Shown here: positions 9,696-49,078 of the stretch, one piece after another
How the letters are laid out: each line of letters begins with the position of its first letter
How positions within the stretch are numbered: position 1 is the first letter of the stretch
Source: Escherichia coli
GTDB lineage: Bacteria; Pseudomonadota; Gammaproteobacteria; Enterobacterales; Enterobacteriaceae
Length of the DNA: 64,000 bases
Assembly (NCBI RefSeq): GCF_009931435.1
Contig: NZ_CP043414.1
Direction: 5' to 3' (one strand)
The notes under the pieces: generated by a model
What the model was told of the DNA's origin: nothing
The model's input: the letters and a program-made list of their open reading frames with translations, nothing else
Database searches by the model: none
Translations under genes and position numbers: made by a program

Positions 9696-10820
9696 TTAGT
9701 CCTTAAACACCTGCGCCAGCAGATTATGGAAATGGGCGATACCATGTTCGGAAATGCCACTACCGCTACTGTCGGCCATGATGCGCCCCTGACCACGGTA
9801 GCCACGCGATTTCAGCCCTTTCTGTACGCTTTCAACCAGACGTAAATCTTCCGGGCGGAACACATCGCGATACCACTCAATCAACGATTTTTGCTCGTCA
9901 GTTAACTCTTTATTGGTGAAGTAAATATCGTAGTTTTGCAGGGTGGTTTCAGAATCTACAGGGAATTCATAAATGACCGTCATCATCCCTTTGATCGGTG
10001 TGACGTTCAGCATGGTGCACGGCCACAGCCAGAAACCGTGGAATGCCGCATCCGTACCTTCTTCAAATTTAAAAGATTGTTCGGATGGTTTGGCAAAGCC
10101 GTATTGCAGCGTCCAGTTGCCGTGCATGGTGTGCCAGTAACGGTCAACCTGAACGGAGTCAGAAAAGCCTGGATGTGCCGGACCACAGTGATAGCACTCA
10201 AGATAGTTATCGACAATGTTCTTCCAGTTGGCAGGCGTGCGGGTGGTAAAGCGGGCCGCTAGTTTCAGATCGTGGACTTCCGGGCAGGCTTCCAGCACTT
10301 TTGCCCCCAGACCAGGTAACTGATCTTCCACGCTGGTGGCGTTAGGGTCCATGTTGATGAAGACGAATCCGGCATACTCTTCCAGACGCACCGGGACCAG
10401 TTGCGCTTTGTCGCTGTCGAAATTAGCGACGTTTTCGCAGTTACGCGCATGGGCCAGGTTGCCATCGAGTTTGAATGCCCAGGCGTGATACGGGCAGGTA
10501 ATCACATTTTTCGCTTTCCCTTCGCCGCTCAATAACTGATGACCACGGTGCGGGCAAACGTTATAGAACGCGCGCAAAACCTTATCACGACCGCGTACCA
10601 GAACAATGCTTTCGCCAATGATCTCACGCGTCACGTAATCATTGGCATTCACCAGTTCGCTATTGTGAGCGACGCAAATCCAGCTTTTGGCGAAGACGTT
10701 CTCTTTTTCATGTTCAAAGGCGTTCTGATCGGTATAGAAACGGGCCGGAATAGTCCATGCTTCTTGCGGGTTGGCGCAAAAATTTTCAGGTAGTACTAAG
10801 TCAGGGCTCAGATTGCTCAT
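9696..10820 (-). CDS. yeaW: Carnitine monooxygenase oxygenase subunit (Rieske non-heme iron oxygenase, CntA-like)
   Basis: 374-aa ORF; Rieske motif CPHRGHQ...CPYHAW. Confidence 0.9.
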   Translation of the reverse strand: MSNLSPDLVLPENFCANPQEAWTIPARFYTDQNAFEHEKENVFAKSWICVAHNSELVNANDYVTREIIGESIVLVRGRDKVLRAFYNVCPHRGHQLLSGEGKAKNVITCPYHAWAFKLDGNLAHARNCENVANFDSDKAQLVPVRLEEYAGFVFINMDPNATSVEDQLPGLGAKVLEACPEVHDLKLAARFTTRTPANWKNIVDNYLECYHCGPAHPGFSDSVQVDRYWHTMHGNWTLQYGFAKPSEQSFKFEEGTDAAFHGFWLWPCTMLNVTPIKGMMTVIYEFPVDSETTLQNYDIYFTNKELTDEQKSLIEWYRDVFRPEDLRLVESVQKGLKSRGYRGQGRIMADSSGSGISEHGIAHFHNLLAQVFKD

Positions 10821-10851
10821 AGGGATACCTTTATCGTTAGGATGATGGCGT

Positions 10852-12462
10852 TCAGTTGTCGCCTTTGAATACCGTTCCTGCCGGGATCAGCGGATTTTTT
10901 TCCGATGCTTCTACCGGTGTCTGCGGGAGATAATCTTCAACTTGATGAGCCGGGATATCGGCGTAATCCTGCTTCAGCCAGCGAATAAATCCACCGACTT
11001 TCACCAGTAAAATAACGAGGAAGGGCAGGGCTGTTAGTACCACAGTGGTTTTCATGGTTTCCAGCGATGCGCCAGTAAATAAGATAGACAGTGGGATCAG
11101 GGTGATCACCACGCACCAGAATAGGCGAAGACCACGGTCAGGGTCGTCACCTTCCTGAAGATTTCGCGTACTGGTCGCCGCCATAGTGTAGGCCACCGCA
11201 TCCATATGCGAGGCAAGGAAAATAATCATCACGCCCAGGTATGCGGCGAGGAATAATTTACCGGCTGGCAATGACATCAGAACTTGTTGAACGGCAGTTT
11301 CACCGCCCAACGTTTCCAGCACTTGCGGGACGTTGATCACGCCATTGATAAACTGATGAATAGCATAGCTTTCCATTACGCCGAAGAAGAACCAGCAGCC
11401 GACGGTGCTTCCGAGGATCAAGCCCCAAATAACTTCTTTGATCTTACGACCACGCGATACGCGAGTGACAAACATTGCTACGCCGGGCGTGTAAGAGATC
11501 CACCAGAGCCAGTAGAAAACGGTCCAGTTGCGGGTAAATAAACCATCGCCAAGTGGATCGGTAAATAAACTCATTTGCAGGAAGTTTTGGGTGGTCAGGC
11601 CGATGGCATTGATGATGCTGTTGGTAATAAATTCGGTTGGGCCGACAATCAGGACCAGCAATGGCAGAAGGAACGCCCCCCAGCCGACCATTTTGCTCAG
11701 ACGTTGCAAACCGTTGTTGATACCAATCCACGAGCTTAGGCAAAAAATGCCGCCGGAAAGCAGGATAACAAAAGCCTGAACGGTGAAGTTATCTGGTAAA
11801 CCGGTCAGTGCGGAAAGTCCACGAGTAAAGGTTGCGGCGGTGACGACCAGGGAAATAGTCAGCGCACCGACAGTGGCGATCAGGAACATCAAATCAACCA
11901 GTTTTCCCCACGGGCCTTGCGGACGAACGCCGGTAATAGCAGCAATAATGCCGGAAAGGCTCAGCCCTTTATTTTTCCGCACATGAAAGTGATAAGCCAT
12001 GATTAATGAGGCCAGCGTATAAGTTGCCCAGGCGCTGATGCCCCAGTGGAAGAAGGAGTAGGGAACGCTAAATTCGAGTGCCTGTTGTGAACGCGGTGCG
12101 ATATTTAATCCAGGCGTTTGATAATAATAGGCCCATTCAGCAACCCCCCAATAAAGCGTAGAAGAACCTAAACCTGCACAAATAAACATAAACAGCCAGG
12201 AGAGCGTGCTGTATTCCGGTTTTCCTTCGCCAAGACGAATATTGCCGTATTTACTGGTGGCTAAATAAATCACCAGTCCCATTGCCAGCAAAACCAATAC
12301 CTGTACGGCGGAACCTAACGTACGCGTGACAAAAGTGTATATAGCGTTGGCCGCGTCGGCCGATTGTTGTGGGAAAAGGCTTAATGCAGCTGCGATGAAA
12401 AGAATGGCCACCAGGCTGATGCTTATCAACGGCACATCTTTTTTCTTAACATTGCTCATCAT
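10852..12462 (-). CDS. yeaV: BCCT-family betaine/carnitine/choline transporter
   Basis: 536-aa ORF, multiple TM segments; true start may be an internal Met. Confidence 0.8.
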
Positions 12463-12663
12463 GAGTCATCTCCTGGGCATAAAAGCCCGTCTCTGGCTTT
12501 TGCCAGTTGTAATTATTTGCAGGGTATGAGTTGTATGTTGTGTTTAACAAATTGATTATTTACATGTTACATAAATTAAACAATTAAGAATACGGAAAGC
12601 CATAAAACACGAAACGGAAACAATAAAAGGTGAAATGACGCAGGTTATTTACTGCAAAGAACG

Positions 12664-31944: not shown

Positions 31945-32952
<1,008 letters not shown>

Positions 32953-33281
32953 CTATTTGTTAGTGAATAAAAGGTTGCCTGTAAAATTACAAAAACCTTA
33001 CGCAGCGTCAAGCGGAATCGTGTCAATCATTGCGACAAATCAATCCTGTGCCTAAGCATTATGCGACTGACTCGCCTCACTCTTCCTTTGGGCTTGAGAC
33101 CACATGGGGTCGGCGCCCCGAATTTTAAAGGGCAATTACGATAAAAATGTGATTTTCATCACGATTTAGGTGCAGCCATTTCGTCGAGATCAAGTTTAGG
33201 ACAAAATTTTGCCAGTTGGTGTTAATGTTTTGTTAGAATCAGTCACGTAATGTGAGCACGATTAAAGTGAGATGTGAGCAA

Positions 33282-33695
33282 ATGGCTAATAAACCTTCGG
33301 CAGAAGAACTGAAAAAAAATTTGTCCGAGATGCAGTTCTACGTGACGCAGAATCATGGGACAGAGCCGCCATTTACGGGTCGTTTACTGCATAACAAGCG
33401 TGACGGCGTATATCACTGTTTGATCTGCGATGCCCCGCTGTTTCATTCCCAAACCAAGTATGATTCCGGCTGTGGCTGGCCCAGTTTCTACGAACCGGTG
33501 AGTGAAGAATCCATTCGTTATATCAAAGACTTGTCACATGGAATGCAGCGCATAGAAATTCGTTGCGGTAACTGTGATGCCCATCTGGGGCATGTCTTCC
33601 CCGACGGGCCACAGCCAACGGGTGAACGTTATTGTGTTAACTCAGCCTCTTTACGCTTTACCGATGGCGAAAACGGCGAAGAAATCAACGGTTGA
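33282..33695 (+). CDS. msrB: Peptide methionine (R)-S-oxide reductase MsrB
   Basis: ORF 33252..33695; start set at [10 protein letters not shown] (137 aa); two CxxC zinc motifs and catalytic RYCVNSASL. Confidence 0.9.
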
Positions 33696-33736
33696 AAAAA
33701 CGATTCAGCAACTTATTCCACAGGAGCGGAAAATTT

Positions 33737-34009
33737 ATGAATCTTGATGACATTATCAACAGCATGACGCCTGAGGTATACCAGCGTTTGTCGACAGCCG
33801 TTGAACTGGGTAAGTGGCCAGATGGCGTTGCGCTGACCGAGGAACAAAAAGAGAACTGCCTACAGCTGGTGATGCTGTGGCAAGCCCGCCATAATACCGA
33901 AGCACAGCATATGACAATTGACACACATGGTCAGATGGTTATGAAGAGCAAACAACAGTTAAAAGAAGATTTTGGTATCTCAGCAAAGCCTATTGCCATG
34001 TTTAAATGA
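33737..34009 (+). CDS. yeaC: DUF1315 protein YeaC
   Basis: ORF 33692..34009; start set at MNLDDIINSM (90 aa). Confidence 0.8.
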   Translation: MNLDDIINSMTPEVYQRLSTAVELGKWPDGVALTEEQKENCLQLVMLWQARHNTEAQHMTIDTHGQMVMKSKQQLKEDFGISAKPIAMFK

Positions 34010-34177
34010 TTGAATTATTCAGCTTTTTGAGTCTGTTATTAAGTGCGAACAAAAATACTTGTTTGACGTCTTGATTGTTCGATTTAGCGGTTGATAGGTT
34101 AAATGCAACACTGACGAGTATAACCTGGCCTACGATGTCAATGAGGAAATGTAGGCCAGAGATGTATTCAACTAATA

Positions 34178-34819
34178 TTACTCCTGCGTCTCTTCCCAGT
34201 CTGCCAGCGTATATAGCGTTGCCCCAGCTGCTGACATCTCCATAAACGCGTGCGCACTGTCCTGTGGCTGGATATTCACGCCACGACAACCATCGGTAAT
34301 CACATTAACCTTATAACCTAACTGTAACGCGTCCAGCACGGTAAACTTCACGCAATAGTCAGTAGCCAGGCCCATAATGATCAATTCATCGATTTCATGA
34401 TCGCGTAACCAGTCATCGAGCGTGGTTTTCTGCCGACGGCCGTTATCAAAAAAGGCACTGTAACTGTCAACTAAAGGATTTTCGCCTTTATGGAACACCG
34501 CTGCGATCGCTTTTTGGTTCAGTAACGGATGTAATTGTGCGCCTTCACTGTTCTGCACACAGTGATCTGGCCAGAAGGTTTGTGGCAAACCGTCGAGTTG
34601 GCCTGGCGTATAAGGCTCTACACCGTGCTGACTGGCAAAACTGCCGTGATTCGCCGGGTGCCAGTCTTGACTGGCGATAACCGCTTCACCGCGCGACTGG
34701 CACCAGTCAATCAGGCGGTTAGCGACATCCACCGTACTGTCACCTTCCGGCACGGCGAGCGCGCCACCAGCACAGAAATCATTTTGTAAATCGACCAGTA
34801 ACAGGGCGCGAGGGGGCAT
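34178..34819 (-). CDS. pncA: Nicotinamidase / pyrazinamidase
   Basis: ORF 34178..34837; start set at MPPRALLLVDLQNDF (213 aa). Confidence 0.9.
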   Translation of the reverse strand: MPPRALLLVDLQNDFCAGGALAVPEGDSTVDVANRLIDWCQSRGEAVIASQDWHPANHGSFASQHGVEPYTPGQLDGLPQTFWPDHCVQNSEGAQLHPLLNQKAIAAVFHKGENPLVDSYSAFFDNGRRQKTTLDDWLRDHEIDELIIMGLATDYCVKFTVLDALQLGYKVNVITDGCRGVNIQPQDSAHAFMEMSAAGATLYTLADWEETQE

Positions 34820-34829
34820 TGCAGTCTCC

Positions 34830-35846
34830 TTAATCATCCGGCGTCAGTTCGCCGCGCAGGTTTTGGCTCATGGCCTTGCGAATGGTTTCAGTATCCAGTT
34901 CCTGGCTAAGCAGGTAATGCAGTTTGGTTAGCGTGGCTTCTACAGTCATATCTGCACCGCCAATAACGCCGGCATGGGCGAGGGCGTTACCAGTGGCATA
35001 ACCCCCCATGTTCACTTTGCCGGACATACATTGTGTCAGGTTGACTACCACAATTCCGCGATCGCTGGCTTCTTGTAATTCTTGCAGGAAGGCTTTGTTT
35101 TGTGGCGCATTACCCACGCCATATGAGCGCAGAATCAATGCCTTCACCGGTTGGCGCAGAAAATTGCGCACGACGTCAGCAGAAATCCCTGGATAAATCG
35201 TCACTACGCCAATCGGTTGTGGGGTGATTGGATGAACGATCAATTCCCCTTCACCGTGCGGGGCGGGTGGCGTATTCAAACGACGAATATGGATACCTGC
35301 TTCCAGTAACGGAGGAAGGTTTGGAGAGGCAAACGCATCAAAACCATCGGCATGGGCTTTGGTGGTACGGTTGCCACGATAAAGTCGATTATTAAAAAAG
35401 AGAGTTACTTCGTTGATAGGATAATTCGCCGCAACGTACAACGCATTCAGCAGATTAATTTGTCCGTCAGAGCGTAACTCAGCCAGCGGGATTTGTGACC
35501 CTGTCACAATGACCGGTTTACCGAGATTCTCGAGCATGAACGACAGCGCAGAGGCGGTATACGCCATCGTGTCGGTGCCGTGCAGAATGACAAAACCATC
35601 ATAGTCGTCATAATGCGCTTTAATATCTTCAGCAATATGCTGCCAGTCTTCTGGCGTCATATCTGAAGAGTCCATCAGCGGCGTATATTCATGAATGGTG
35701 AAATCTGGCATCTCCGGGCGATGGAATTCCGGCATCAGCGCCAGTTGGCGTTGTAGATGACCTGACACCGGAATATAACCCTGCTCGGAACGCTGCATCC
35801 CGATGGTCCCGCCCGTGTAGGCGACGTAAATTGATTTCTTTTGCAT
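34830..35846 (-). CDS. ansA: Cytoplasmic L-asparaginase I
   Basis: 338-aa ORF MQKKSIYVAYTGGTIGMQRS... Confidence 0.9.
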   Translation of the reverse strand: MQKKSIYVAYTGGTIGMQRSEQGYIPVSGHLQRQLALMPEFHRPEMPDFTIHEYTPLMDSSDMTPEDWQHIAEDIKAHYDDYDGFVILHGTDTMAYTASALSFMLENLGKPVIVTGSQIPLAELRSDGQINLLNALYVAANYPINEVTLFFNNRLYRGNRTTKAHADGFDAFASPNLPPLLEAGIHIRRLNTPPAPHGEGELIVHPITPQPIGVVTIYPGISADVVRNFLRQPVKALILRSYGVGNAPQNKAFLQELQEASDRGIVVVNLTQCMSGKVNMGGYATGNALAHAGVIGGADMTVEATLTKLHYLLSQELDTETIRKAMSQNLRGELTPDD

Positions 35847-35977
35847 GATATTGATATGAATGATATCGAAAGAGCAAAAGTATATACGTGAGGGGCAGCG
35901 AGCGCACCTGGATACTCTGTGGATATGAGAAAAGTCCGGCAGAACGGAGGGATTAGTGTCCCGCCGGAGAAAAGTGG

Positions 35978-36700
35978 TTAATCCTGCAACGCATAGGTTA
36001 CGGTGGTTACTACGCGTACCGTTTTATTAATCGCCGTAGGATCATCTTCATCACTGCCACTGGCGAAGATCTGGAACACGCCTTGTGAGGCATCGCTAAT
36101 TGACCCCACCTGGCTACCTGAGTCCGTTGCAAATTGTAATGCTGCGTTGCGTGCATCTTTGGTGGCGGCGGCAATCATCTCAGCGCGCAGTGCGCCAATA
36201 CCATTAAAGCGATAGGCGACTTTGCTCTCAGCGATAGCGCCCTCCGTAGCGACTTGCAGTTCGTTTAATTTCGCGACGACTTTTTCGACAGCAGCAACAT
36301 TATGGGTTTTTATCGTCACTGACCCGTCTGCGTTATAGCGTGGCATTGTGGGATCATCTTTCAGATAAAAGGAATCTGTTCGCTTGCTTGTCCATTGGCC
36401 CAGGGTTATCTCTTTCTCGTTAATCCCCTGAGCATTGAGTTCGGCAACAATTTTTTTCTGCGCGTCTTCCAGTTTCGGGAACAGTTCGCCGGGAATATTA
36501 CCCTTAAAGTTAATCGCAATTGTTAATTCTGCCGTATCTGCGCGAACTTCTTTTTCAGAAAGCCCACGCACATTTACATAACGGTTATTGGTTTTTAAAT
36601 GTTTAACACCATCGCCAACAAAATAACCACAGGCGCTAATCCCCAGTCCGAGGACGATAGCGGCAATTAAAGAGGGGGCCTTATTCACTGATGACTCCAT
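35978..36700 (-). CDS. SIMPL/DUF541-like (YggE/BP26-like) exported or membrane-anchored protein; not expected between ansA and sppA in K-12
   Basis: ORF 35978..36790; probable start at Met31 (MESSVNKAPSLIAAIVLGLGISACGYF, hydrophobic signal/anchor) or at in-frame GTG 36688, which has GGAG 6 nt upstream. Confidence 0.6.
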   Translation of the reverse strand: MESSVNKAPSLIAAIVLGLGISACGYFVGDGVKHLKTNNRYVNVRGLSEKEVRADTAELTIAINFKGNIPGELFPKLEDAQKKIVAELNAQGINEKEITLGQWTSKRTDSFYLKDDPTMPRYNADGSVTIKTHNVAAVEKVVAKLNELQVATEGAIAESKVAYRFNGIGALRAEMIAAATKDARNAALQFATDSGSQVGSISDASQGVFQIFASGSDEDDPTAINKTVRVVTTVTYALQD

Positions 36701-36803
36701 ATCAGATGCTAAATGAGCAAGGGAATGTAGTGGAGAGAGGGAGTGAAAGACAGTCCGATTCAGGAGTGTGGCCGACAGCATATCGGCCACATTTTTGCAG
36801 GAT

Positions 36804-38660
36804 TTAACGCACGTTGGCGCAGGTCAGGCAAAACGCATAACGGTTTTGTGGGTCGTTAAACGCTGCCAGCTTGTCGCTTTCACTTTTAACGGTAGAGGCT
36901 ACCGAGGCCAGCGGTGCAGGTAACATGGCCTGGAACGCATCTGGCAACATTGCCCGGACAGAACCAGACATATTGTCCATCACTTTGTCGAAGAAGGTCG
37001 GTTCATCAACGTAGTATTCCAGATGCCACTGTTTCACTTTTGCCAGCTCTGCTGCTTTGGCAACCGCATCATCGAAATCTCCGAGACTATCGACCAGCCC
37101 GTTAGCTTTTGCATCCTGACCGGTCCAGACGTGGCCCTGGGCGATTTTATCAATCTGCTCCGGCGTCGAATGACGCGCATCAGCAACCAGCGTGATAAAG
37201 CGTTTATAGCCATTCTCAATGCTTAACTGCATCATCTGCTGCGCTTCCGGCGGCAGTGCCTTGGTGATAGAAACATCCGCCAGCGGTGAAGTTGAGACGC
37301 CATCGGTATGAACACCAATCGAATCCAAACTATTTTCTACGGTAGTGATCACGCCGAAGATACCGATAGAACCGGTCAGGGTGCTGGGGTTAGCCACAAT
37401 GTAATTAGCTGGCGTGGAAATCCAGTAACCACCAGATGCCGCCATGCCGCCCATCGATACAACCACAGGCTTACCCGCTGCCCTGGCGGCTGCCAGTTCA
37501 GCGCGAATCACTTCAGAGGCGGTAACGCTGCCGCCAGGGCTATTAACACGCAGAACAATCGCTTTCACTTTCGGGTCAAGGCGAGCGTCGCGGATTTGTG
37601 CCGCAGTGGTATCACCGCCAACATTCCCCTGAGTTTCCTCGCCATCCATAATTGCGCCATTCGCGAAGACGACACCGATGCTGTCACCGGTATCTGCCGG
37701 CGTTTTCAATGCGTAATCGTAATAACTGATGGCGCGATAATTTTTATCAGTCTTACTCCAGCCGAACTCTTTGGTCAGAGCTTTTTCGATTTCGGCACTT
37801 GATGCCAGTGCATCGACCAGCTTGTTTTCCAGCGCATATTTCGCGGTATCGCCACCTGTTTTGGTTAAACCCTCAAGCAACCCTTGCGCACCAGGGAATA
37901 CCTGCTGAGCAGGGATCTGCCGGTTAGCGGCAACAGTATTCAGATAGTTTTGCCACAGCTCACCGATCCAGCGGCTGTCAGCTTCGCGGGCTGCCGGTGA
38001 CATATCATCACGAATAAACGGTTCAACGGCAGATTTATACGTACCCACGCGGAACACATGGGTGGAGACTTTCAGCTTATCCAGTAACGATTTGTAGTAC
38101 AGACCGTTGGTAGCAAAACCGTGCAGATCCACCACGCCTTGTGGAGATAGCCAAATTTTGTTGGCGAAACTGGCGAGATAATATTGCCCCTGGCTGTAGT
38201 TCTCGCCTATGGCATAAACTGGCTTCCCGCTGTCACGAAACTCTTTCAGGGCTTTGCCGATGTACTGCATAGACGGCTGGTCGCCGCCTGCGAAGTTTTT
38301 CAGATCCATCACGATACCGGTGATATTGCGGTCGTCCTTCGCCTGGCGAATGGTGTTGACGATATCAAACAGTGAGTTTTCCTGCAGACGGTCGGAACTG
38401 GCACCAAGGAGCTGGCGGCTTAGCTTACTAAACCGCTGAGAACTGTCGGGTTTATCGACGATTACACCAGATATGTCCAGCAGCAGCGCGCCACGACTGG
38501 CCGTTTCTTTCGAATCACCACCTCTGACCTGCATCCAGATCCCCACACCAACCAGTACGAGAAAAATAAAGAACAGGTTAAGTACCATTTCACGGACGAA
38601 ATTCAGCAGACGCCACGTCCATTTAAAAAATCCGGCAATAAATCGCCAAAGGGTTCGCAT
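36804..38660 (-). CDS. sppA: Signal peptide peptidase A (protease IV)
   Basis: ORF 36804..38804; start set at [14 protein letters not shown] (618 aa). Confidence 0.9.
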
Positions 38661-38820
38661 GTATTCTCCCAACTTAAGGTCACACCTGTCACAGGCGCAA
38701 TAGATGTGGTTATCGTAATGACCCAACCGGCACTTGTCAGCAGGAATTGCGGACTGTGCTGTAACAAAATCCACTCTCGTGTTAATTTTGTGAATAAATA
38801 TCATGACAGGAGTTAATCAA

Positions 38821-39372
38821 ATGGATGCACTCGAACTATTGATCAATCGCCGTAGCGCCTCCCGCCTGGCTGAACCTGCGCCAACGGGTGAACAACTGCA
38901 AAACATCCTGCGTGCGGGTATGCGTGCCCCGGACCATAAGTCCATGCAACCGTGGCATTTTTTTGTGATTGAAGGGGAAGGACGCGAGCGTTTCAGCGCA
39001 TTATTGGAACAGGGGGCGATTGCTGCCGGTAGTGATGACAAAGCTATCGACAAAGCGCGTAATGCGCCGTTCCGCGCACCGCTCATCATAACGGTGGTGG
39101 CAAAATGCGAAGAAAATCATAAAGTCCCGCGCTGGGAACAGGAAATGTCTGCGGGATGTGCGGTCATGGCGATGCAAATGGCAGCAGTTGCCCAGGGGTT
39201 TGGCGGTATCTGGCGCAGTGGCGCATTAACTGAAAGTCCGGTAGTGCGTGAAGCATTCGGTTGCCGTGAGCAGGATAAAATTGTCGGTTTTCTCTACCTT
39301 GGTACGCCGCAGTTGAAAGCATCTACGTCGATAAACGTCCCGGACCCGACGCCGTTTGTGACTTATTTCTGA
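38821..39372 (+). CDS. ydjA: NAD(P)H nitroreductase YdjA
   Basis: ORF 38803..39372; start set at [13 protein letters not shown] (183 aa). Confidence 0.85.
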
Positions 39373-39488
39373 TAATTGTCGCGAAACTGTCTGGATTGTG
39401 AGCAAAGGCGCAGGAATTCAGACACTCTCACTTATCACTTCATGGAATGAGGGTTACCATACCCGGATTGCATTGACAGGAGATGTCC

Positions 39489-40532
39489 ATGAGCGAGAAC
39501 TCGATTCGTTTGACCCAATACAGCCACGGTGCAGGTTGCGGCTGTAAAATTTCCCCAAAAGTGTTGGAGACCATCCTGCACAGTGAGCAGGCGAAGTTTG
39601 TTGATCCGAATTTGCTTGTGGGTAATGAAACCCGCGACGATGCGGCGGTGTACGATCTGGGCAATGGCACCAGCGTTATCAGTACCACCGACTTCTTTAT
39701 GCCGATCGTTGATAATCCTTTCGATTTTGGCCGCATTGCGGCGACTAACGCCATCAGCGATATCTTCGCGATGGGTGGCAAACCGATTATGGCGATTGCG
39801 ATCCTCGGCTGGCCTATTAACAAACTTTCCCCTGAAATTGCCCGCGAAGTAACCGAAGGTGGACGCTATGCATGCCGTCAGGCGGGTATTGCGCTGGCTG
39901 GCGGTCACTCCATCGATGCGCCGGAGCCGATTTTTGGTCTGGCGGTAACGGGGATCGTACCGACCGAGCGGGTGAAGAAAAACAGTACTGCACAAGCCGG
40001 ATGCAAACTGTTCCTGACGAAACCGCTGGGAATTGGCGTTCTTACTACGGCTGAGAAAAAATCACTGCTGAAACCAGAACATCAGGGACTAGCGACGGAA
40101 GTGATGTGCCGGATGAATATTGCAGGCGCGTCCTTTGCCAACATCGAAGGCGTAAAAGCGATGACTGACGTGACTGGTTTTGGTCTGCTGGGGCATTTGA
40201 GCGAAATGTGTCAGGGTGCTGGTGTGCAGGCGCGAGTCGACTATGACGCGATCCCGAAACTGCCGGGGGTTGAAGAGTACATTAAGTTGGGCGCAGTGCC
40301 TGGCGGCACCGAACGTAACTTTGCCAGCTATGGGCATCTGATGGGTGAAATGCCGCGTGAAGTGCGCGATCTGCTGTGCGATCCGCAAACTTCTGGCGGT
40401 CTGCTGCTGGCGGTCATGCCGGAAGCAGAAAATGAGGTCAAAGCTACAGCCGCCGAGTTTGGCATTGAACTGACGGCGATTGGCGAACTGGTGCCAGCGC
40501 GCGGCGGTCGTGCCATGGTTGAGATCCGTTAA
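39489..40532 (+). CDS. selD: Selenide, water dikinase (selenophosphate synthetase)
   Basis: ORF 39483..40532; start set at [10 protein letters not shown] (347 aa); N-terminal [11 protein letters not shown] with Cys at the Sec/Cys position. Confidence 0.9.
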
Positions 40533-40536
40533 TTCA

Positions 40537-42492
40537 ATGCGGTTGTTTATTGCCGAAAAACCGAGTCTGGCGCGCGCCATTGCTGATGTCCTGCCCAAAC
40601 CGCACCGGAAAGGCGATGGCTTTATCGAGTGCGGTAATGGCCAGGTGGTGACCTGGTGTATCGGTCACCTGCTTGAGCAGGCGCAGCCAGACGCCTACGA
40701 CAGTCGCTATGCGCGCTGGAACCTGGCCGATCTCCCCATTGTCCCGGAAAAGTGGCAATTACAGCCACGACCCTCCGTGACCAAACAACTTAATGTGATC
40801 AAACGCTTCCTGCATGAAGCCAGCGAAATCGTTCACGCCGGGGACCCGGATCGCGAAGGACAATTGCTGGTGGATGAAGTGCTGGACTACCTGCAACTGG
40901 CACCGGAAAAGCGCCAGCAGGTACAGCGTTGTTTGATAAACGACCTGAACCCGCAGGCGGTTGAGCGGGCGATCGATCGTCTTCGCTCCAATAGCGAGTT
41001 TGTACCACTGTGCGTTTCTGCGCTGGCGCGAGCACGAGCCGACTGGTTATACGGCATCAATATGACCCGCGCGTACACCATTCTCGGTCGTAATGCGGGT
41101 TATCAGGGCGTGCTTTCCGTGGGACGCGTGCAGACGCCCGTGCTCGGGCTGGTGGTGCGCCGCGATGAAGAAATTGAAAACTTCGTGGCTAAAGACTTCT
41201 TTGAAGTCAAAGCGCATATCGTGACACCTGCCGATGAGCGGTTTACCGCTATCTGGCAACCGAGCGAAGCGTGTGAACCGTACCAGGATGAAGAAGGGCG
41301 CTTGTTACATCGTCCGCTGGCGGAGCATGTAGTTAACCGCATTAGTGGTCAACCGGCTATTGTCACCAGCTATAACGATAAACGGGAATCAGAATCCGCG
41401 CCGCTGCCGTTTTCGCTTTCGGCGTTGCAGATTGAAGCGGCAAAACGCTTTGGTCTGAGCGCGCAGAATGTGCTTGATATTTGCCAGAAGCTGTACGAAA
41501 CGCACAAGCTAATCACTTATCCGCGTTCCGATTGTCGCTATTTGCCAGAAGAACATTTTGCCGGACGCCACGCGGTGATGAATGCTATCGGCGTCCATGC
41601 GCCGGATCTGTTGCCGCAACCAGTGGTAGATCCAGATATACGCAACCGCTGTTGGGATGACAAAAAGGTCGATGCGCACCACGCCATCATCCCGACCGCG
41701 AGGAGTTCTGCCATCAACCTGACGGAAAACGAGGCGAAGGTCTATAACCTGATTGCTCGTCAGTATTTGATGCAGTTCTGTCCGGACGCGGTGTTCCGCA
41801 AGTGTGTTATCGAACTGGAAATAGCCAAAGGCAAATTTGTCGCTAAAGCCCGTTTTCTAGCTGAAGCAGGCTGGCGCACGCTGTTAGGCAGCAAAGAGCG
41901 CGATGAAGAAAACGACGGCACGCCACTGCCTGTGGTGGCGAAAGGCGATGAGTTGCTGTGTGAAAAAGGTGAAGTGGTAGAGCGGCAAACCCAGCCGCCG
42001 CGCCATTTTACCGATGCAACACTGCTTTCGGCGATGACCGGGATCGCGCGCTTTGTGCAGGACAAAGATCTGAAAAAGATCCTTCGTGCCACCGATGGTC
42101 TGGGGACAGAAGCGACTCGCGCCGGGATTATTGAACTGCTGTTCAAGCGAGGCTTCCTGACCAAAAAAGGGCGCTATATCCACTCCACCGACGCCGGAAA
42201 AGCATTATTCCATTCGCTGCCAGAGATGGCGACGCGACCGGACATGACCGCGCACTGGGAATCGGTGCTGACGCAAATCAGCGAAAAGCAGTGTCGCTAT
42301 CAGGACTTTATGCAACCGTTGGTGGGGACGCTGTATCAGTTGATTGATCAGGCCAAACGTACGCCGGTGCGGCAGTTTCGCGGCATAGTGGCTCCAGATG
42401 GCGGAGAAGGAAATAAAAAGACTTCATCACGTAAGCGAGCAGCGAAAAAAAGCCCGCCATCAGCAGAGGCGGGCAGTGGAGTGATAATGTAA
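40537..42492 (+). CDS. topB: DNA topoisomerase III
   Basis: ORF 40480..42492; start set at [14 protein letters not shown], 4 bp after the selD stop; basic C-terminal tail. Confidence 0.9.
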
Positions 42493-42515
42493 TGCTCTGA
42501 TGCAGTCAGTTTTCG

Positions 42516-42560
42516 TAGGCCAGATAAGGCGTTCACGCCGCATCTGGCATAAACGCCTGA
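42516..42560. repeat. REP (repetitive extragenic palindromic) element between convergent topB and gdhA
   Basis: gtaggccagataaggcgttcacgccgcatctggca, classic REP consensus. Confidence 0.55.
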
Positions 42561-42575
42561 AACGGCGCTAATGAC

Positions 42576-43919
42576 TTAAATCACCCCCTGCGCCAGCATC
42601 GCATCGGCAACCTTCACAAAACCGGCAATGTTCGCGCCCTGCACGTAGTTGGTTTGCTCACCTTCACCACCATGCTCAACACAGGCATGGTGGATATCCA
42701 GCATGATGTGATGCAAACGTGCGTCAACTTTCTCGGCTTTCCAGCCCAGGCGCGCAGCGTTTTGCGCCATTTCCAGGCCGGATGTAGCTACGCCACCAGC
42801 ATTAGCCGCTTTACCCGGTGCAAACAGTACGCCTGCCTGCTGGAACAGTTCAGTCGCTTCGATGGTGGTCGGCATATTTGCCCCTTCGGCGACGGCTTTA
42901 ACGCCATTGGCGATAAGCTGATGCGCGGCGTCTACATCCAGTTCGTTCTGGGTGGCGCAAGGCAGGGCGATATCAACCGGTACAGACCACGGCTGTTGGC
43001 CTTCGAGATAGACCAGGCCAAATTCTTTGGCGTAATCTGCCACTCGACCATCGCGGCTGGCTTTGATTTCGATAAGACGTGCCAGTTTCTCTTTAGTGAA
43101 TCCGCTTTCATCAACGACAGTGCCACTGGAATCTGACGCAGTAATCACACGGGCACCAAATTCCATCGCTTTTTCGATAGCGTACTGAGCGACGTTGCCG
43201 GAGCCAGAAACGGAAACGCGCATCCCTTCAAAACCCATACCGTGGCGTTTTAGCATTGCTTCTGTGAAATAAACCAGACCGTAGCCGGTTGCTTCCGGGC
43301 GAATAAGACTGCCGCCAAAAGAAAGCCCCTTACCGGTGAAGACGCAGGCGGTATTGTTGGAGAGCTTTTTCATCATCCCCGCCATAAAGCCGACTTCACG
43401 ACCACCAACGCCGATATCACCTGCCGGAACGTCGGTATCCGCGCCCAGGTGGCGATACAGTTCAGTCATCAGGGCCTGGCAAAAACGCATCACTTCACCT
43501 TCGCTTTTTCCTTTCGGATCGAAATCGCTGCCACCTTTACCACCGCCCATCGGCAGGGTAGTCAGGGCATTTTTGAAGGTTTGCTCGAAGCCGAGAAATT
43601 TGAGAATGGAGAGGTTAACTGACGGATGGAAACGCATACCGCCTTTGTACGGGCCGATGGCGGAGCTGAACTGCACGCGCCATGCACGGTTGACCTGTAC
43701 CTGGTTGCGATCGTCAACCCATACCACGCGAAACTGGATCACGCGCTCCGGTTCAACCAGACGCTCCAGTAATGACATTTGGCGATATTTTGGATTTTGT
43801 TCAAGAAAAGGCCAGAGTGTGGTCATTACTTCACGAACGGCTTGCGCGAACTCGGTTTGATTCGGGTCGCGCTTTTGGACATGGTTGAGGAATGACTCCA
43901 GAGAATATGTCTGATCCAT
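42576..43919 (-). CDS. gdhA: NADP-specific glutamate dehydrogenase
   Basis: 447-aa ORF MDQTYSLESFLNHVQKRDPNQ... Confidence 0.95.
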   Translation of the reverse strand: MDQTYSLESFLNHVQKRDPNQTEFAQAVREVMTTLWPFLEQNPKYRQMSLLERLVEPERVIQFRVVWVDDRNQVQVNRAWRVQFSSAIGPYKGGMRFHPSVNLSILKFLGFEQTFKNALTTLPMGGGKGGSDFDPKGKSEGEVMRFCQALMTELYRHLGADTDVPAGDIGVGGREVGFMAGMMKKLSNNTACVFTGKGLSFGGSLIRPEATGYGLVYFTEAMLKRHGMGFEGMRVSVSGSGNVAQYAIEKAMEFGARVITASDSSGTVVDESGFTKEKLARLIEIKASRDGRVADYAKEFGLVYLEGQQPWSVPVDIALPCATQNELDVDAAHQLIANGVKAVAEGANMPTTIEATELFQQAGVLFAPGKAANAGGVATSGLEMAQNAARLGWKAEKVDARLHHIMLDIHHACVEHGGEGEQTNYVQGANIAGFVKVADAMLAQGVI

Positions 43920-44154
43920 AGATATAAAACCCTTATATATTAATACGATTATGCTTATGTTGTTTATGTCATGTGCTTTTGCAGTTTTCGACTATACCAT
44001 CAAGAATGTGACGGTAAGCAAGAAAAAAATGACTCACGAAAGCAAATTAATAACGGGAGAAATCTCATAACCAAAAGCGATAACTCAGACGCTAAAGTTT
44101 TGCCGCCAGGCTACCGTTATCAGTAACAGAGACAAAAACGTTAAGGAGTTCCCT

Positions 44155-44427
44155 GTGAGTCGAGCATTGTTCGCCCTAGCATTGGCATTTCCATTCATTG
44201 CACTGGCTAACCCGCATTATCGTCCGGACGTGGAGGTAAACGTACCGCCTGAAGTATTCAGTTCAGGCGGGCAGTCAGCGCAGCCCTGTAATCAGTGCTG
44301 CGTCTATCAGGATCAAAACTATTCTGAAGGGGCGGTAATTAAAGCCGAAGGAATACTGCTGCAATGCCAGCGGGATGACAAAACTCTTGGCACTAATCCG
44401 CTGGTCTGGCGGCGCGTAAAGCCATAA
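44155..44427 (+). CDS. ynjH: DUF1496 exported protein YnjH
   Basis: 90-aa ORF with signal peptide; 3-prime end overlaps nudG by 35 bp. Confidence 0.8.
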   Translation: MSRALFALALAFPFIALANPHYRPDVEVNVPPEVFSSGGQSAQPCNQCCVYQDQNYSEGAVIKAEGILLQCQRDDKTLGTNPLVWRRVKP

Positions 44428-44800
44428 ACGCCTTTAATAGTGGAATGTCAGCAGGGGCCAGCGGATATTGCAGCGCCTCTTCAGGTGAGCACCAGACCAG
44501 CGCCTGATGTTCATGTGCCTGTAACGTCCCGTGGAAGTGGGGTATGTGCCAGGCATGAAGATGGATAATCCGCCCCGAAACTTCTCGCTGATGGCTGGCA
44601 ACATACTCACCCACAGTTGCTTCGATGCCCAATTCTTCGCGTAACTCACGCACCAGCGCCTGCCGCTGGCTTTCATCCGGTTCGACTTTACCACCAGCAA
44701 ATTCCCATAATCCCGCTTGATCGCTATGCGTAGGGCGTTGCGCGATTAAAATTTTGTCATCCTGTTCGATGATGGCGGCAACAACATCAATCATTTTCAT
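44393..44800 (-). CDS. nudG: CTP pyrophosphohydrolase (Nudix)
   Basis: 135-aa ORF; Nudix box GGKVEPDESQRQALVRELREELGIE. Confidence 0.85.
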   Translation of the reverse strand: MKMIDVVAAIIEQDDKILIAQRPTHSDQAGLWEFAGGKVEPDESQRQALVRELREELGIEATVGEYVASHQREVSGRIIHLHAWHIPHFHGTLQAHEHQALVWCSPEEALQYPLAPADIPLLKAFMALRAARPAD

Positions 44801-44886
44801 AAATTACACACGGTCGAATACAGGAAAAATGCCATAATATCCGCAGTGTTGCTCAATCAGAAAGGCTTTATATTTAAGGAGTGCCT

Positions 44887-45507
44887 GTGTTAGACCGCCA
44901 TCTTCATCCCCGAATTAAACCTTTGTTGCATCAGTGTGTGAAGGTGCTGGATAAACCCGGCATTACGCCAGATGGTTTAACATTAGTGGGATTTGCCATC
45001 GGCGTGCTGGCACTGCCGTTTCTGGCGCTGGGCTGGTATCTGGCGGCGCTAATCGTCATTTTGTTGAACAGGCTGCTTGATGGTCTGGACGGCGCGTTGG
45101 CGCGGCGAAGAGGACTTACCGACGCGGGTGGCTTTCTCGATATTTCTCTCGATTTTCTTTTTTACGCACTGGTGCCTTTTGGGTTTATCCTCGCCGCACC
45201 GGAGCAAAACGCGCTGGCAGGCGGCTGGCTGCTGTTTGCGTTTATCGGCACGGGCAGCAGTTTTCTCGCTTTTGCTGCGCTGGCGGCGAAACATCAGATT
45301 GATAATCCCGGTTATGCGCATAAATCGTTTTATTATCTGGGCGGGTTAACCGAAGGCAGCGAGACGATTTTGCTGTTTGTTCTGAGTTGCCTCTTGCCAG
45401 CTTATTTTCCGTGGTTTGCGTGGGTATTTGGTGCGTTGTGCTGGATGACGACCTTTACGCGGGTGTGGAGTGGGTATCTGACGCTGAAGTCGCTCCAGCG
45501 CCAGTAA
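44887..45507 (+). CDS. ynjF: CDP-alcohol phosphatidyltransferase family membrane protein YnjF
   Basis: ORF 44881..45507; start set at second GTG (MLDRHLHP, 206 aa); motif DGLDGALAR. Confidence 0.8.
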   Translation: MLDRHLHPRIKPLLHQCVKVLDKPGITPDGLTLVGFAIGVLALPFLALGWYLAALIVILLNRLLDGLDGALARRRGLTDAGGFLDISLDFLFYALVPFGFILAAPEQNALAGGWLLFAFIGTGSSFLAFAALAAKHQIDNPGYAHKSFYYLGGLTEGSETILLFVLSCLLPAYFPWFAWVFGALCWMTTFTRVWSGYLTLKSLQRQ

Positions 45508-45515
45508 TTGCAATG

Positions 45516-46823
45516 TTATTTGCTGCTGTCCGGGCCGCGCTCACCGGTTGCTACGGGATTTTTCGGATCGCTGCTCCATTCGTACCAGCCGCCGTCGTAA
45601 ACGGAGACGTTATTCCAGCCCATTGCTCGTGCGTACATAAAGGTTTCGGACGCGCGCCAGCCGGTGCCGCAGTAGAATGAAACTTGCTGATCTGGTTTGA
45701 TATTCCATGCTTTCCACATAGCGGCAATATCATCGGCGCTACGCATGGTGCCATCCGGGTTATGGAAATCCTCCATATGCGTCGAGTCGCTACCAGCGTG
45801 TCCCCAACGGGCTCCGGCTATTTCACCTTTTGGCTTAATATAGCTGTAACCACTGGTCGTACCGATAAATTCTGGCCACGAACGAATGCTCACCAGCGAT
45901 GCATCCTGGCGATGCAGCAGCCCACGGGCCTGTTCCATATCAAGCATCAACTGCGGTTGCGCCGGGATCTTCACGCCGAAATCCGGTTCAGCTTTCACTT
46001 TCGGTGGCGTTCCGCGCTCAACAGGCAGTCCCGCGTCGGACCAGGTTTGCCAGCCGCCGTCCAGCAGGCGCACATCTTTCACCCCTGCATAGAGCATAAT
46101 CTGTGCTACACGCGCTGCTGCGTATACATCACGACCATATAGAATCACCGTGGTGTCATGACGAATGCCATGCTTTGCCAGCATCGCTTTCAGTTGTTCA
46201 TCAGAGACTTTATTCCACAGCGGTTCGCTTTCCACTTCATTGGTATCGATGTAATCCGCGCCGGGAATATGGCTGATAAGGTAAAGCTTAGGAGCGCCCC
46301 AGGCCGCTTCAATGACTTTCCAGTCACCGGCAGGTTTCGCCGTAACCTCTTTACCCTGTTGCAGGTCATGCAGCCATTGCGGATAAACCAGCTGCTCAAA
46401 GTGCGGCAGTTTTTGCAGACGGGAAGGTTCGCTTAGCGCGTCACTCAGGATGGAGATATGCGTAAAACCTGCTTTTTGCAGTCGCGTTTTGACGGCGTCG
46501 ACATCTTTGTCATTACCGTACAGCGCCACCGGAGCGTCGGTTTTCAGGTTATGTTGCTTGATCCACGCGTTGAGCTGTTCGGTGCTCATTTTGTCGAGCC
46601 AGCTAGCAGAGAGGTTTAAGGCGGCAGGTTCATGACCGGAAGGGCCATTTAAGGTTTGTGGCCAGCCGTTATAAAACGCGCTGGGGCGAGTATCTATCGC
46701 TTTGCCATTTTGTTGTTGAAGCTGGTCAAGAGTAAGAGGCTTCGCCAGTTCAGCGGCCCACGAAGAAGCGCAAGCCAGCCCTAAAGCCATTGCCAGCGCG
46801 GTCATTTGAGAAACACGTTTCAT
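45516..46823 (-). CDS. ynjE: Periplasmic thiosulfate sulfurtransferase (triple rhodanese)
   Basis: ORF 45516..46871; start set at MKRVSQMTALAM (435 aa); rhodanese active-site loop FYCGTGWRASE. Confidence 0.85.
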   Translation of the reverse strand: MKRVSQMTALAMALGLACASSWAAELAKPLTLDQLQQQNGKAIDTRPSAFYNGWPQTLNGPSGHEPAALNLSASWLDKMSTEQLNAWIKQHNLKTDAPVALYGNDKDVDAVKTRLQKAGFTHISILSDALSEPSRLQKLPHFEQLVYPQWLHDLQQGKEVTAKPAGDWKVIEAAWGAPKLYLISHIPGADYIDTNEVESEPLWNKVSDEQLKAMLAKHGIRHDTTVILYGRDVYAAARVAQIMLYAGVKDVRLLDGGWQTWSDAGLPVERGTPPKVKAEPDFGVKIPAQPQLMLDMEQARGLLHRQDASLVSIRSWPEFIGTTSGYSYIKPKGEIAGARWGHAGSDSTHMEDFHNPDGTMRSADDIAAMWKAWNIKPDQQVSFYCGTGWRASETFMYARAMGWNNVSVYDGGWYEWSSDPKNPVATGERGPDSSK

Positions 46824-46889
46824 CGAAAATCCCGACATTGTAGTTTTGAGTGCGCCATTCTGAACTGACACATTGGGAAAAACTTTGCG

Positions 46890-47543
46890 TTATCGCAGTT
46901 TGTTGTAATTTTCTGACCACTGCGCCATATCCAGAACAGAACTATCAGCAGGAACATCCTGGAGATCGTGCGTTACCTGAACGACGGGGATCGCCAGTTC
47001 GCGAACTTCGCTGAACACCCACTGGCGAAAATTATCGCGCAGAGCCACATCAAGACGGCTGAACGGCTCATCCAGGAGTAACGCTTTTGGCTGGGCGAGA
47101 AGGGCGCGTAGCAGAGCAACGCGCGCTCGCTGACCGCCAGACAAAGTGGCAGGATCCTGATGGAAAGCTCCGTCAAGGCCTGAACGCTCAAGTGCATCAT
47201 TCACGGCATTACGTCGGGCATTCCCCTTAAGTGTCTCCGGTAGCGCCAGCAGTAAATTTTGCCCGACGCTGAACTGGTCAAATAACAGTGCATCCTGGAA
47301 AAGAATGCCAATCTGACGCTGTGCGGTGGGTAGCATGTCAATCCGTTGCTCATTGAGCCATAGCTCACCTGCACAAGAAAACTGTCCGGCCAGCGCACCA
47401 ATCATCCATGAAAACAGTGTAGATTTTCCACAGCCAGACGGCCCCATTAACGTGACAATGTCACCTTTATCCACCGTAAAGTTAACGTTTGTCAGCAAGC
47501 GGCTTTCTGGTAAACGTAGCGAAACATTTTTCACGCAGAGCAT
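46890..47543 (-). CDS. ynjD: ABC transporter ATP-binding protein YnjD
   Basis: ORF 46890..47630; start set at MLCVKNVSLRL (217 aa); Walker A GPSGCGKST, signature LSGGQRARV. Confidence 0.8.
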   Translation of the reverse strand: MLCVKNVSLRLPESRLLTNVNFTVDKGDIVTLMGPSGCGKSTLFSWMIGALAGQFSCAGELWLNEQRIDMLPTAQRQIGILFQDALLFDQFSVGQNLLLALPETLKGNARRNAVNDALERSGLDGAFHQDPATLSGGQRARVALLRALLAQPKALLLDEPFSRLDVALRDNFRQWVFSEVRELAIPVVQVTHDLQDVPADSSVLDMAQWSENYNKLR

Positions 47544-49078
47544 TAGCGGAGTCCTTGTCTGACATAACCTACCCATTTTGCGACTAACGCGGTCAGGGCA
47601 AAAATAATAAGCGGCAACAGTAGTTGCCATAAAGCCTGGGCGGCGAGAATGCCGTTGCTGCCGCCGCTGCTTAATGCCACCGCTTCAGTGGTGAGTGTCG
47701 GAAAACGCCCCGCGCCCAGCCACAGCGTCGGCATATACTGCGCAATACTGACTGAAAATCCCACCGCGAAGGTAATCAGCGCAGGGCGCAACATGAGTGG
47801 GCATTTCACGTAAAAGAAGATTTTGGCCCGCGACCAGCCCAGTGTTTGCGCAATCAAAATTAACCGTGAATCAATGCGCTGCCAGGCGGGTTGCAGGATA
47901 AACAGCATCCACGGCATTACCCACAGCAGATGCCCCCAGACCACCGCTGTCCAGTTCCCATCTATGTTCAGCCATAGCGCCAGCATGTACTGGCCCGCCA
48001 CCAGCGGCAGAGCGGGTAATAAAATGGGCAACCAGAGCCACAACTGGCGACGCTTTGCCCCCCATTCCAGCCACAGCAGTAACAGGACCAAAGCGATAAA
48101 CGTCGCCACCAGCCCCATTGTCAGGCTGTTGATGAGCGCTTCACTATTGATCGTCGACTGATCCGCGAGGATCGCCAGCAGAGCCACACAGAGCACACCG
48201 GTTAAGGGTAAAAAAATCGCCAGTGTATTACCGGGTAATAAAGGAGTGGCGTGCTTACGAACGCCATCTTCCTGGGGGATCGTGCGTCGCCAGGCGCGCC
48301 ATAACAGATAACCAAGCAAAACGTAGGCGGCGAGTAACAGCATCAGCAGCAGACTGGCAAGCGCGCCTTTTGTCTGTTGGTCAATGCCACCCTGGGTTAG
48401 CCACTGCCAGCTAATTACCGCCAGCGTCGGTGGATTACCCGGCCCGAGAATAATTGCCACATCCACGACCGACAACGACCATGCCACAATAGCCAGCATC
48501 GCCATTGCCAGTGCAGGCGCGACGGAGGGCAACAACAACCAGTTCAGACATTGCCAGCGGCTGTAGCCCAGCGAATCCAGTACAATAACCTGCTGCAACA
48601 GCCGTTTCTCGCTCAATACTGCCGCTAAGATCCACAGCAGAAATGCGCTTTCTTTCACCGCCAGGGTAAGGCCCAGCCCAATACCCAATTTATCCATCGG
48701 CGGAGTGAGAAAAGGAAAAACCTGATAAACCAGGCCACCTTCAGCAAACAGCAACAGGGCGCTGGTGGCAAAAGCCACATGGGGAATGGCGAGCAGCCAC
48801 GGCAGACGGGCGCACATACGCTGCCATTTCGGCCCAGGCCACAGCGCCATAACTACCAGCAGGGCAATCGTCAATGCGCCGAGCGCCGCGATGGTTGTTG
48901 ACACCAGCGTCGCCAGTAATGCCTGCGGTAGCTGCGGATCGGCAAATAACGCCTGCCAGTGTGCCAACGACAAAGCAGGCGATATCAGCGTGAACGCCGC
49001 CGGGATCAGCGGTGCATAAATCACCGCCACCATCGCCCACAGCAACAAGATTAATGCGTACCGTAACGGTGTAGCCAT
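47543..49078 (-). CDS. ynjC: ABC transporter permease YnjC
   Basis: ORF 47543..49102; start tentatively at MATPLRYALILL; stop shares 1 nt with the ynjD start. Confidence 0.75.
   Translation of the reverse strand: MATPLRYALILLLWAMVAVIYAPLIPAAFTLISPALSLAHWQALFADPQLPQALLATLVSTTIAALGALTIALLVVMALWPGPKWQRMCARLPWLLAIPHVAFATSALLLFAEGGLVYQVFPFLTPPMDKLGIGLGLTLAVKESAFLLWILAAVLSEKRLLQQVIVLDSLGYSRWQCLNWLLLPSVAPALAMAMLAIVAWSLSVVDVAIILGPGNPPTLAVISWQWLTQGGIDQQTKGALASLLLMLLLAAYVLLGYLLWRAWRRTIPQEDGVRKHATPLLPGNTLAIFLPLTGVLCVALLAILADQSTINSEALINSLTMGLVATFIALVLLLLWLEWGAKRRQLWLWLPILLPALPLVAGQYMLALWLNIDGNWTAVVWGHLLWVMPWMLFILQPAWQRIDSRLILIAQTLGWSRAKIFFYVKCPLMLRPALITFAVGFSVSIAQYMPTLWLGAGRFPTLTTEAVALSSGGSNGILAAQALWQLLLPLIIFALTALVAKWVGYVRQGLR

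Follow-up and report, generated by a model that had tools for sequence, protein, structure and literature searches.

The 168-bp spacer between yeaC and pncA in the Escherichia coli chromosome analyzed here is, with high probability, the empty allele of a two-state locus, and homologous recombination in the genes on either side exchanges the one state for the other. Within the window, i.e., the whole 64-kb stretch of DNA under study (contig NZ_CP043414.1), yeaC and pncA are convergent and contiguous and no ydj gene lies between them (Table 1): yeaC ends at position 34009 and the stop codon of pncA begins at 34178 on the opposite strand, which bears out the distance given in an earlier reading of the same DNA made from its letters alone (the sequence-only reading). 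Moreover, other empty genomes have spacers homologous to this one, with 1,089 genomes matching. In E. coli K-12 MG1655 the corresponding interval between the end of pncA (1852528) and the end of yeaC (1861702) measures 9,173 bp and is annotated with ydjE, ydjF, ydjG, ydjH, ydjI, ydjJ, ydjK and ydjL, so that the eight genes which the sequence-only reading had placed there are indeed present. The ydj operon of 8.8 kb codes for two MFS transporters, a DeoR regulator, a kinase, an aldolase and three dehydrogenases/reductases of an acid-sugar pathway; these statements on function rest on the product names of the K-12 RefSeq annotation and on the summary in the available part of PMC9602453.

In the empty state, the convergent genes yeaC and pncA are separated by a short AT-rich spacer with a REP-tail hairpin at its pncA end, and in the occupied state the ydjE-ydjL operon is inserted between the yeaC 3' flank and this hairpin. 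Both states are free of mobility genes and att-like repeats and most likely pass between lineages through homologous recombination in the conserved flanking genes. The phenotype to be expected from the empty state would be the lack of catabolism of the natural substrate of the Ydj pathway.

Table 1. Coordinates of the yeaC-pncA locus in the window (position 1 is the first nucleotide of the 64-kb stretch).
Feature	Position	Strand	Evidence or remark
msrB	33282-33695	+	upstream of yeaC; preceded by gapA (-)
yeaC (DUF1315), left flank of the site	33737-34009	+	Pfam PF07023, E 1.7e-27; RefSeq annotation of the identical stretch in RMDEC465
Minimal recombinant patch	33862-34205		window equals RMDEC465 (empty), unlike 2020CK-00188 (islet-bearing); SNP positions
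yeaC-pncA spacer, empty allele of the ydjE-ydjL site	34010-34177		168 bp, 36% G+C
Stretch without detectable K-12 counterpart	34044-34108		65 bp, replacing 9,082 bp in K-12 (1852587-1861668; ydjE-ydjL and promoter region); blastn, local alignments with shuffle controls
pncA 3' flank common to islet-bearing genomes	34109-34177		homologous to the K-12 pncA-ydjE intergenic region; 51 nt at 76% identity
IS621-target-like 11-mer	34123-34133	+	ACCTGGCCTAC; CT core 34130-34131; one mismatch to ATCWGGCCTAC; pattern search
Hairpin, REP-tail-like palindrome	34125-34159		9-bp arms CTGGCCTAC (34125-34133) and GTAGGCCAG (34151-34159), 17-nt loop
pncA (nicotinamidase), right flank of the site	34178-34819	-	nucleotide identity to K-12 98.4%
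ansA	34830-35846	-	after pncA; followed by the SIMPL-domain gene, then sppA

Alignment of the junction to K-12 (blastn against 86 kb of K-12 DNA), which the sequence-only reading had suggested as a check, placed the breakpoints at positions 34043, i.e., 34 nt past the yeaC stop codon, and 34109, where the K-12 alignment picks up again. On the pncA side, the homology to K-12 reached a local alignment score of 54 as compared to a shuffle maximum of 30.5, and a score of 102 was obtained for the divergent Escherichia locus L006. The yeaC-side part of the spacer is collinear with K-12, with a score of 22-26 as compared to a shuffle maximum of 25-33; since this is not significant alone, the position of the left breakpoint carries an uncertainty of about 35 bp. 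No direct or inverted repeats above chance are common to both ends of the K-12 islet, the longest word in common being 9 nt and matched by 33 of 200 shuffles, and the K-12 annotation of the islet comprises only transporters, enzymes and a regulator but no mobility gene. Neither in the 168-bp spacer nor at the K-12 islet ends was a transposase, an integrase, a tRNA or a flanking repeat beyond chance detected, in accordance with the earlier statement that the spacer bears no IS or att-like scar. The homology between the ydj islets of K-12 and those of Citrobacter, Klebsiella, Raoultella and Yokenella ends about 127 bp upstream of ydjL, which, as judged from these alignments, would mark the inner edge of the transferable unit.

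The notion of a metabolic islet subject to presence/absence polymorphism, put forward in the sequence-only reading, was substantiated by genome counts: islet DNA was present in 4,336 of 5,426 complete E. coli genomes, and yeaC and pncA were contiguous in 1,089-1,091 of them. As the two classes sum to the whole set of 5,426 complete genomes, relocation of the islet elsewhere in a genome is at most exceptional, and by the same counts a ydj copy elsewhere in the present strain, known here from 64 kb, is unlikely. Among the matches listed, the empty genomes were mostly O26, O103, O111 and similar strains. The polymorphism as such is already published and represents an ordinary, documented strain difference. 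In the available part of a survey of E. coli (PMC9602453, Microbiol Spectr 2022), the presence of these eight genes (ydjE to ydjL) is described as varying across phylogroups, with ydjI found in 96.6% of phylogroup A, 29.9% of B1, 100% of B2, 50% of C, 100% of D and 100% of E, and presence of the ydj operon is statistically linked to lactic-acid resistance.

The site was compared across the Enterobacterales with PncA as anchor and one genome per species, yielding 80 loci. pncA and yeaC were less than 300 bp apart in 30 of the 80 species representatives and 300-700 bp apart in three; an insert of 1.3-2.4 kb separated the genes in 29 and one of about 7.8 kb in two, ydjE-ydjL lay next to pncA in seven, and the state was not assigned in nine. 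The adjacent group includes Salmonella diarizonae, Kosakonia, Phytobacter, Pseudescherichia, Siccibacter, Shimwellia, Mixta, Rahnella and Serratia oryzae, and the group bearing the islet at the same site consists of Citrobacter species, Raoultella planticola, two Klebsiella species and Yokenella. L006 and L009, which represent two divergent Escherichia lineages, are both empty; their flanks are about 89-94% identical to the window, and their spacers of 156 and 167 bp align over the full length with that of the window. Due to the wide adjacency and the full-length homology of the empty Escherichia spacers, the contiguity of pncA and yeaC is, on comparative grounds, an old architecture and the site a multi-state variable locus across the order. 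The proposal that the 168-bp spacer is the ancestral empty site thus holds for the architecture of the site; in this particular chromosome, however, the empty allele forms a short patch in a haplotype that is otherwise nearly the same as that of an islet-bearing strain.

The insert of 1.3-2.4 kb consists of a GH18 chitinase-like gene, either alone or together with an HNH gene. The GH18 chitinase-like protein (secreted, 417 aa, PF00704) is encoded just downstream of pncA in many Enterobacterales (L012, L039, L021, L027, L026 and others) and its gene is often accompanied by an HNH endonuclease gene (114 aa) between pncA and yeaC; in Citrobacter youngae and Klebsiella spallanzanii the gene order is pncA, ydjE-L, GH18. 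A search for GH18/HNH remnants in the Escherichia spacers and in the K-12 ydjL-yeaC region by tblastn and blastn returned nothing better than E 0.1. In Escherichia albertii NBRC 107761 (L007, 2128-3698), pncA is followed by an ORF for a 112-aa membrane-like protein and a DDE_Tnp_1 transposase, not by yeaC or ydjE, on a contig that stops before the next core gene.

The exchange of states can be read from the SNPs around the spacer. To the right of the junction, the closest genome is that of 2020CK-00188, which bears the islet: the window shows zero differences to it in 32348-33861 and one in 34206-48182. Apart from this, the two chromosomes differ within the block of about 17 kb by three SNPs in 32323-32347, by six SNPs in 33862-33926 (the 3'-terminal part of yeaC), by the class of the spacer, by the islet as such and at positions 34176 and 34205. 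Compared to the empty strain RMDEC465, the window shows zero differences in 33821-34991, and RMDEC465 diverges on either side. The crossover intervals are 33821-33861 in yeaC and 34206-34991 in pncA, and the recombinant patch takes in the last ~150 nt of yeaC according to the SNP table. As far as these polymorphisms tell, the islet state is one that was swapped by homologous recombination with one crossover in each of the two genes: a haplotype of about 17 kb that is almost identical to 2020CK-00188 is broken by a patch of 0.34-1.2 kb in which the window equals RMDEC465. The presence of a short empty patch within a near-identical islet-bearing haplotype implies that the state was recently exchanged, not inherited undisturbed. 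A local peak of divergence between B1 and K-12 around the junction, which would point to a tract imported into B1, was also sought; divergence showed a mild rise only, in msrB-yeaC, of about 2%.

With regard to the direction of the swap, we lean slightly towards a loss, i.e., the lineage of this chromosome may have lost the operon in one step by importing a short empty allele. The islet of 2020CK-00188 is about 2% diverged from K-12, as are its flanks, which argues against a recent import from a K-12-like donor. Furthermore, the family sharing the right-flank haplotype (SIMPL-positive, 943 genomes) is almost always islet-bearing. Short tracts are a common kind of recombination in E. coli and are more frequent than tracts of 10 kb. 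Taken together, the divergence of the 2020CK-00188 islet, the predominance of islet-bearing genomes in the family and the frequency of short tracts favor a loss in the window lineage.

The reverse direction nevertheless has a considerable probability, if one short of even. Here, the window, RMDEC465 and N96 would keep the ancestral empty site and 2020CK-00188 would have gained the islet via an import of at least 9.5 kb with crossovers in yeaC and pncA. A gain in 2020CK-00188 is favored by the fact that three of the four related chromosomes of this haplotype family (window, RMDEC465 and N96) are empty, and it would be in line with the empty spacers in two divergent Escherichia lineages, with the adjacency widespread in the order, and with the G+C content of the islet (46.3%), which is below that of its flanks (52.8% and 48.8%). 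However, the window-type empty spacer occurs in just two genomes although the SIMPL-bearing family comprises 943, and a gain requires a far longer tract than a loss. In addition, the islet of 2020CK-00188 displays ordinary inter-lineage divergence and no recent foreign origin, and ydjI is universal in phylogroups B2, D and E in the accessible portion of the published survey (PMC9602453).

The spacer of the window was 100% identical only to that of RMDEC465, as compared to 96% for N96, 73% for L009 and 55% for L006. The common B1 type is 78-79% identical to it, with flanking genes that are 96-98% identical. Only 2 of the 5,426 complete genomes carry the window-type empty spacer, and the remaining ~1,086 empty genomes have the B1-type spacer of 159-160 bp; the rare variant could act as a lineage marker. 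The pncA-proximal 70 nt form two classes, one comprising the window, B1 and L009 and the other L006 and the islet-bearing K-12 and 2020CK-00188; what sets the classes apart is an indel of 11 bp together with the sequence of the loop. In N96 (L092, 9151-9318), the first 103 nt of the spacer equal those of the window and are followed by six substitutions, most of them matching the B1 type; this combination of a window-type left part and a B1-like right part indicates that the spacer itself recombines and is mosaic. A more far-reaching reading, which we consider rather unlikely, would regard the yeaC-pncA spacer as an old, possibly trans-species dimorphism, in which ydj would be linked only to class 1 (L006 and all islet-bearing E. 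coli), class 2 would be made up of L009, B1 and the window, and niche-dependent selection would keep both states; the window would then represent a conversion of 0.34-1.2 kb that removed the 9-kb operon in one step.

The ends of the spacer match the outer flanks of the K-12 islet, as would be expected if illegitimate recombination, or recombination between short repeats, had excised the islet in situ from an occupied site like that of K-12 and left 168 bp behind. Such a deletion is very improbable, since the pncA-proximal 70 nt show about 26 differences, including the 11-bp indel, to the islet-bearing relative as compared to one difference in the adjacent 14 kb, and since 65 bp of the spacer lack a K-12 counterpart; moreover, B1 and a divergent Escherichia lineage have spacers homologous to this one from end to end, and the K-12 islet is not flanked by repeats. 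It is equally hard to credit that the spacer encodes a small RNA or small protein of its own as a functional stand-in for the islet. Spacers of 156-168 bp in Escherichia are longer than those of most genera with adjacent pncA and yeaC (about 50-100 bp), and mechanical ORFs of 56 and 95 aa span the spacer, but these ORFs overlap pncA out of frame, Rfam gave no match at E<=1 in 33600-34400, and promoter-like sites numbered 2 as compared to 1.6 in shuffles. Besides, conservation of the leftmost 100 nt within E. coli is only 70-78%, and their folding does not surpass that of shuffled sequences (z -1.6).

The perfect 9-bp inverted repeat with a loop of about 17 nt, which had already been noticed in the spacer, was recovered with exactly 17 nt between its arms. 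Its core, GGCCTAC-N8-30-GTAGGCC, occurs once in the 64-kb window as compared to 0.00 expected (100 shuffles), and its folding energy amounts to -23.8 kcal/mol on the plus strand (z -4.7) and -19.8 kcal/mol on the minus strand (z -2.4). Every Escherichia locus retrieved, K-12, B1, L006 and L009 among them, has the hairpin downstream of pncA and equally far from the stop codon of this gene; the 7-bp core GGCCTAC/GTAGGCC is invariant among the aligned Escherichia loci and the loop varies. K-12 carries the hairpin between pncA and ydjE, i.e., on the pncA side of the islet, and its presence in the occupied K-12 means that it is not an islet scar and is unrelated to the polymorphism. At the orthologous position, Lelliottia, Enterobacter and a record titled Escherichia sp. 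ESNIH1 possess a full tail-to-tail REP pair with the same heptamer ends. As in REP elements, a GTAG/CTAC tail stands next to a palindrome in CTGGCCTAC and GTAGGCCAG; a G+C-rich body of about 25-35 nt matching the consensus was not found around the arms, the surroundings of which are AT-rich, unlike REP, and CTTATCMGGCCTAC with one mismatch allowed was located in the 64-kb window only at 42515, not in the spacer. Since the REP body is lacking, we call the hairpin a REP-tail relic, not a REP, and by comparison with the orthologous loci it most likely derives from a tail-to-tail REP pair. By analogy with what REPs do, it would probably act as a stem-loop that protects the 3' ends of the converging pncA and yeaC transcripts. 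Terminator-like sites were absent from 33600-34400, and the hairpin, with its 17-nt loop, is followed by no T-run on either strand.

The natural target of IS621 was described as ATCAGGCCTAC in REP elements (PMC11208160). Besides the 11-mer at the left arm of the hairpin (Table 1), the other arm (34151-34161, minus strand) fits the IS621 target ATCWGGCCTAC with one mismatch. In 2011C-3911 (L004, 6114-7390), a copy of this REP-specific element interrupts the B1-type spacer at precisely the CT core of the left-hand arm (...ATCTGGC[CT]-IS621-[CT]ACAATG), which shows that the REP-tail hairpin is a live natural target of IS621, and one more such target outside canonical REP. The B1 form of the site, in which the insertion was seen, reads ATCTGGCCTAC, and the variant of the window reads ACCTGGCCTAC. 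The perfect 9-bp palindrome in the empty site notwithstanding, a mobile island with site-specific excision that left this repeat as an att-like scar is extremely improbable, since occupied genomes also carry the hairpin and on one side of the islet only, its motif is the generic REP-pair motif of many loci, and neither a recombinase (integrase or transposase) nor a tRNA/att target in or beside the islet nor direct repeats at both of its ends were found.

Several other variable spots were observed in the window. Between ansA and sppA lies a SIMPL/DUF541 gene (window 35926-36766; ORF 35978-36790, minus strand; Pfam PF04402, E 4e-18) that 943 of 5,426 complete E. coli genomes, O157:H7 among them, possess, and in place of which K-12 and the B1 strain O111 have a spacer of only about 52-170 bp; it represents a second presence/absence polymorphism, 1.7 kb from the ydj site. 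The gene ynjI (DUF1266; K-12 1843717-1844998) is absent at 42493-42573, where topB and gdhA are separated by 81 bp, and is likewise missing from RMDEC465, N96 and 2020CK-00188. The topB-gdhA gap contains the REP tail CTTATCTGGCCTAC (42515-42528, minus strand), the sole other REP-tail match in the 64-kb window. Between dmlA and yeaV, 223 bp (12335-12557) are without K-12 counterpart. yeaV is annotated with 1,446 nt in K-12 as compared to 1,611 nt in RMDEC465 and 2020CK-00188, and in view of this shorter length K-12 yeaV probably carries a deletion at its 5' end. The region of yeaW and yeaV (carnitine monooxygenase and BCCT transporter, ~10000-12000) shows 67-83 substitutions per kb to both nearest genomes as compared to 0.5-3% in its neighbours, a level of divergence that suggests an imported allele. 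Finally, yoaH-yoaC-yoaB (~935-2190) could be aligned to the nearest genomes only piecewise (84-94% identity); extra genes in this region encode a pentapeptide-repeat protein in RMDEC465 and SMI1/KNR4 and hypothetical proteins in 2020CK-00188.

The importance of the empty site beyond book-keeping is little. The strain is predicted to be without the Ydj acid-sugar pathway, and the sharp mosaic junctions illustrate well, for teaching, how homologous recombination in core flanks removes or adds an operon that has no mobility genes. About 20% of the complete genomes being empty here, mainly B1 serotypes O26, O103 and O111, is in agreement with the available part of PMC9602453. That part scores gene presence only, and the sequence of the empty site, its variants and the recombination junctions come from the present analysis, which adds the breakpoints, separates the hairpin from the polymorphism, and reveals how rare the window's spacer variant is and how sharp the recombination junctions are. 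As compared to REP/BIME elements, the arms of the hairpin also end in the REP tail GGCCTAC; however, the G+C-rich REP bodies of about 25 nt are missing and tails of 7-9 nt pair across an AT-rich loop of 15-17 nt. For IS621, a member of the IS110 family guided by a bridge RNA, the insertion at the CT core of the hairpin fits the published target ATCAGGCCTAC (PMC11208160). The GH18 cassette with or without HNH, in turn, fills the pncA-yeaC site in the same manner as the ydj islet (29 of 80 species representatives) but with unrelated cargo. Chromosomal hotspots of the E. coli pan-genome harbor islets specific to certain strains, which change places through homologous recombination in the core genes beside them, as reportedly described by Touchon et al. 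(2009), among others. The ydj islet likewise lacks mobility genes, occupies the same site in several genera, has a lower G+C content than its surroundings and shows crossovers in core genes; it is thus a textbook instance of such hotspot islets, with nothing essential that differs and with unusually sharp junctions.
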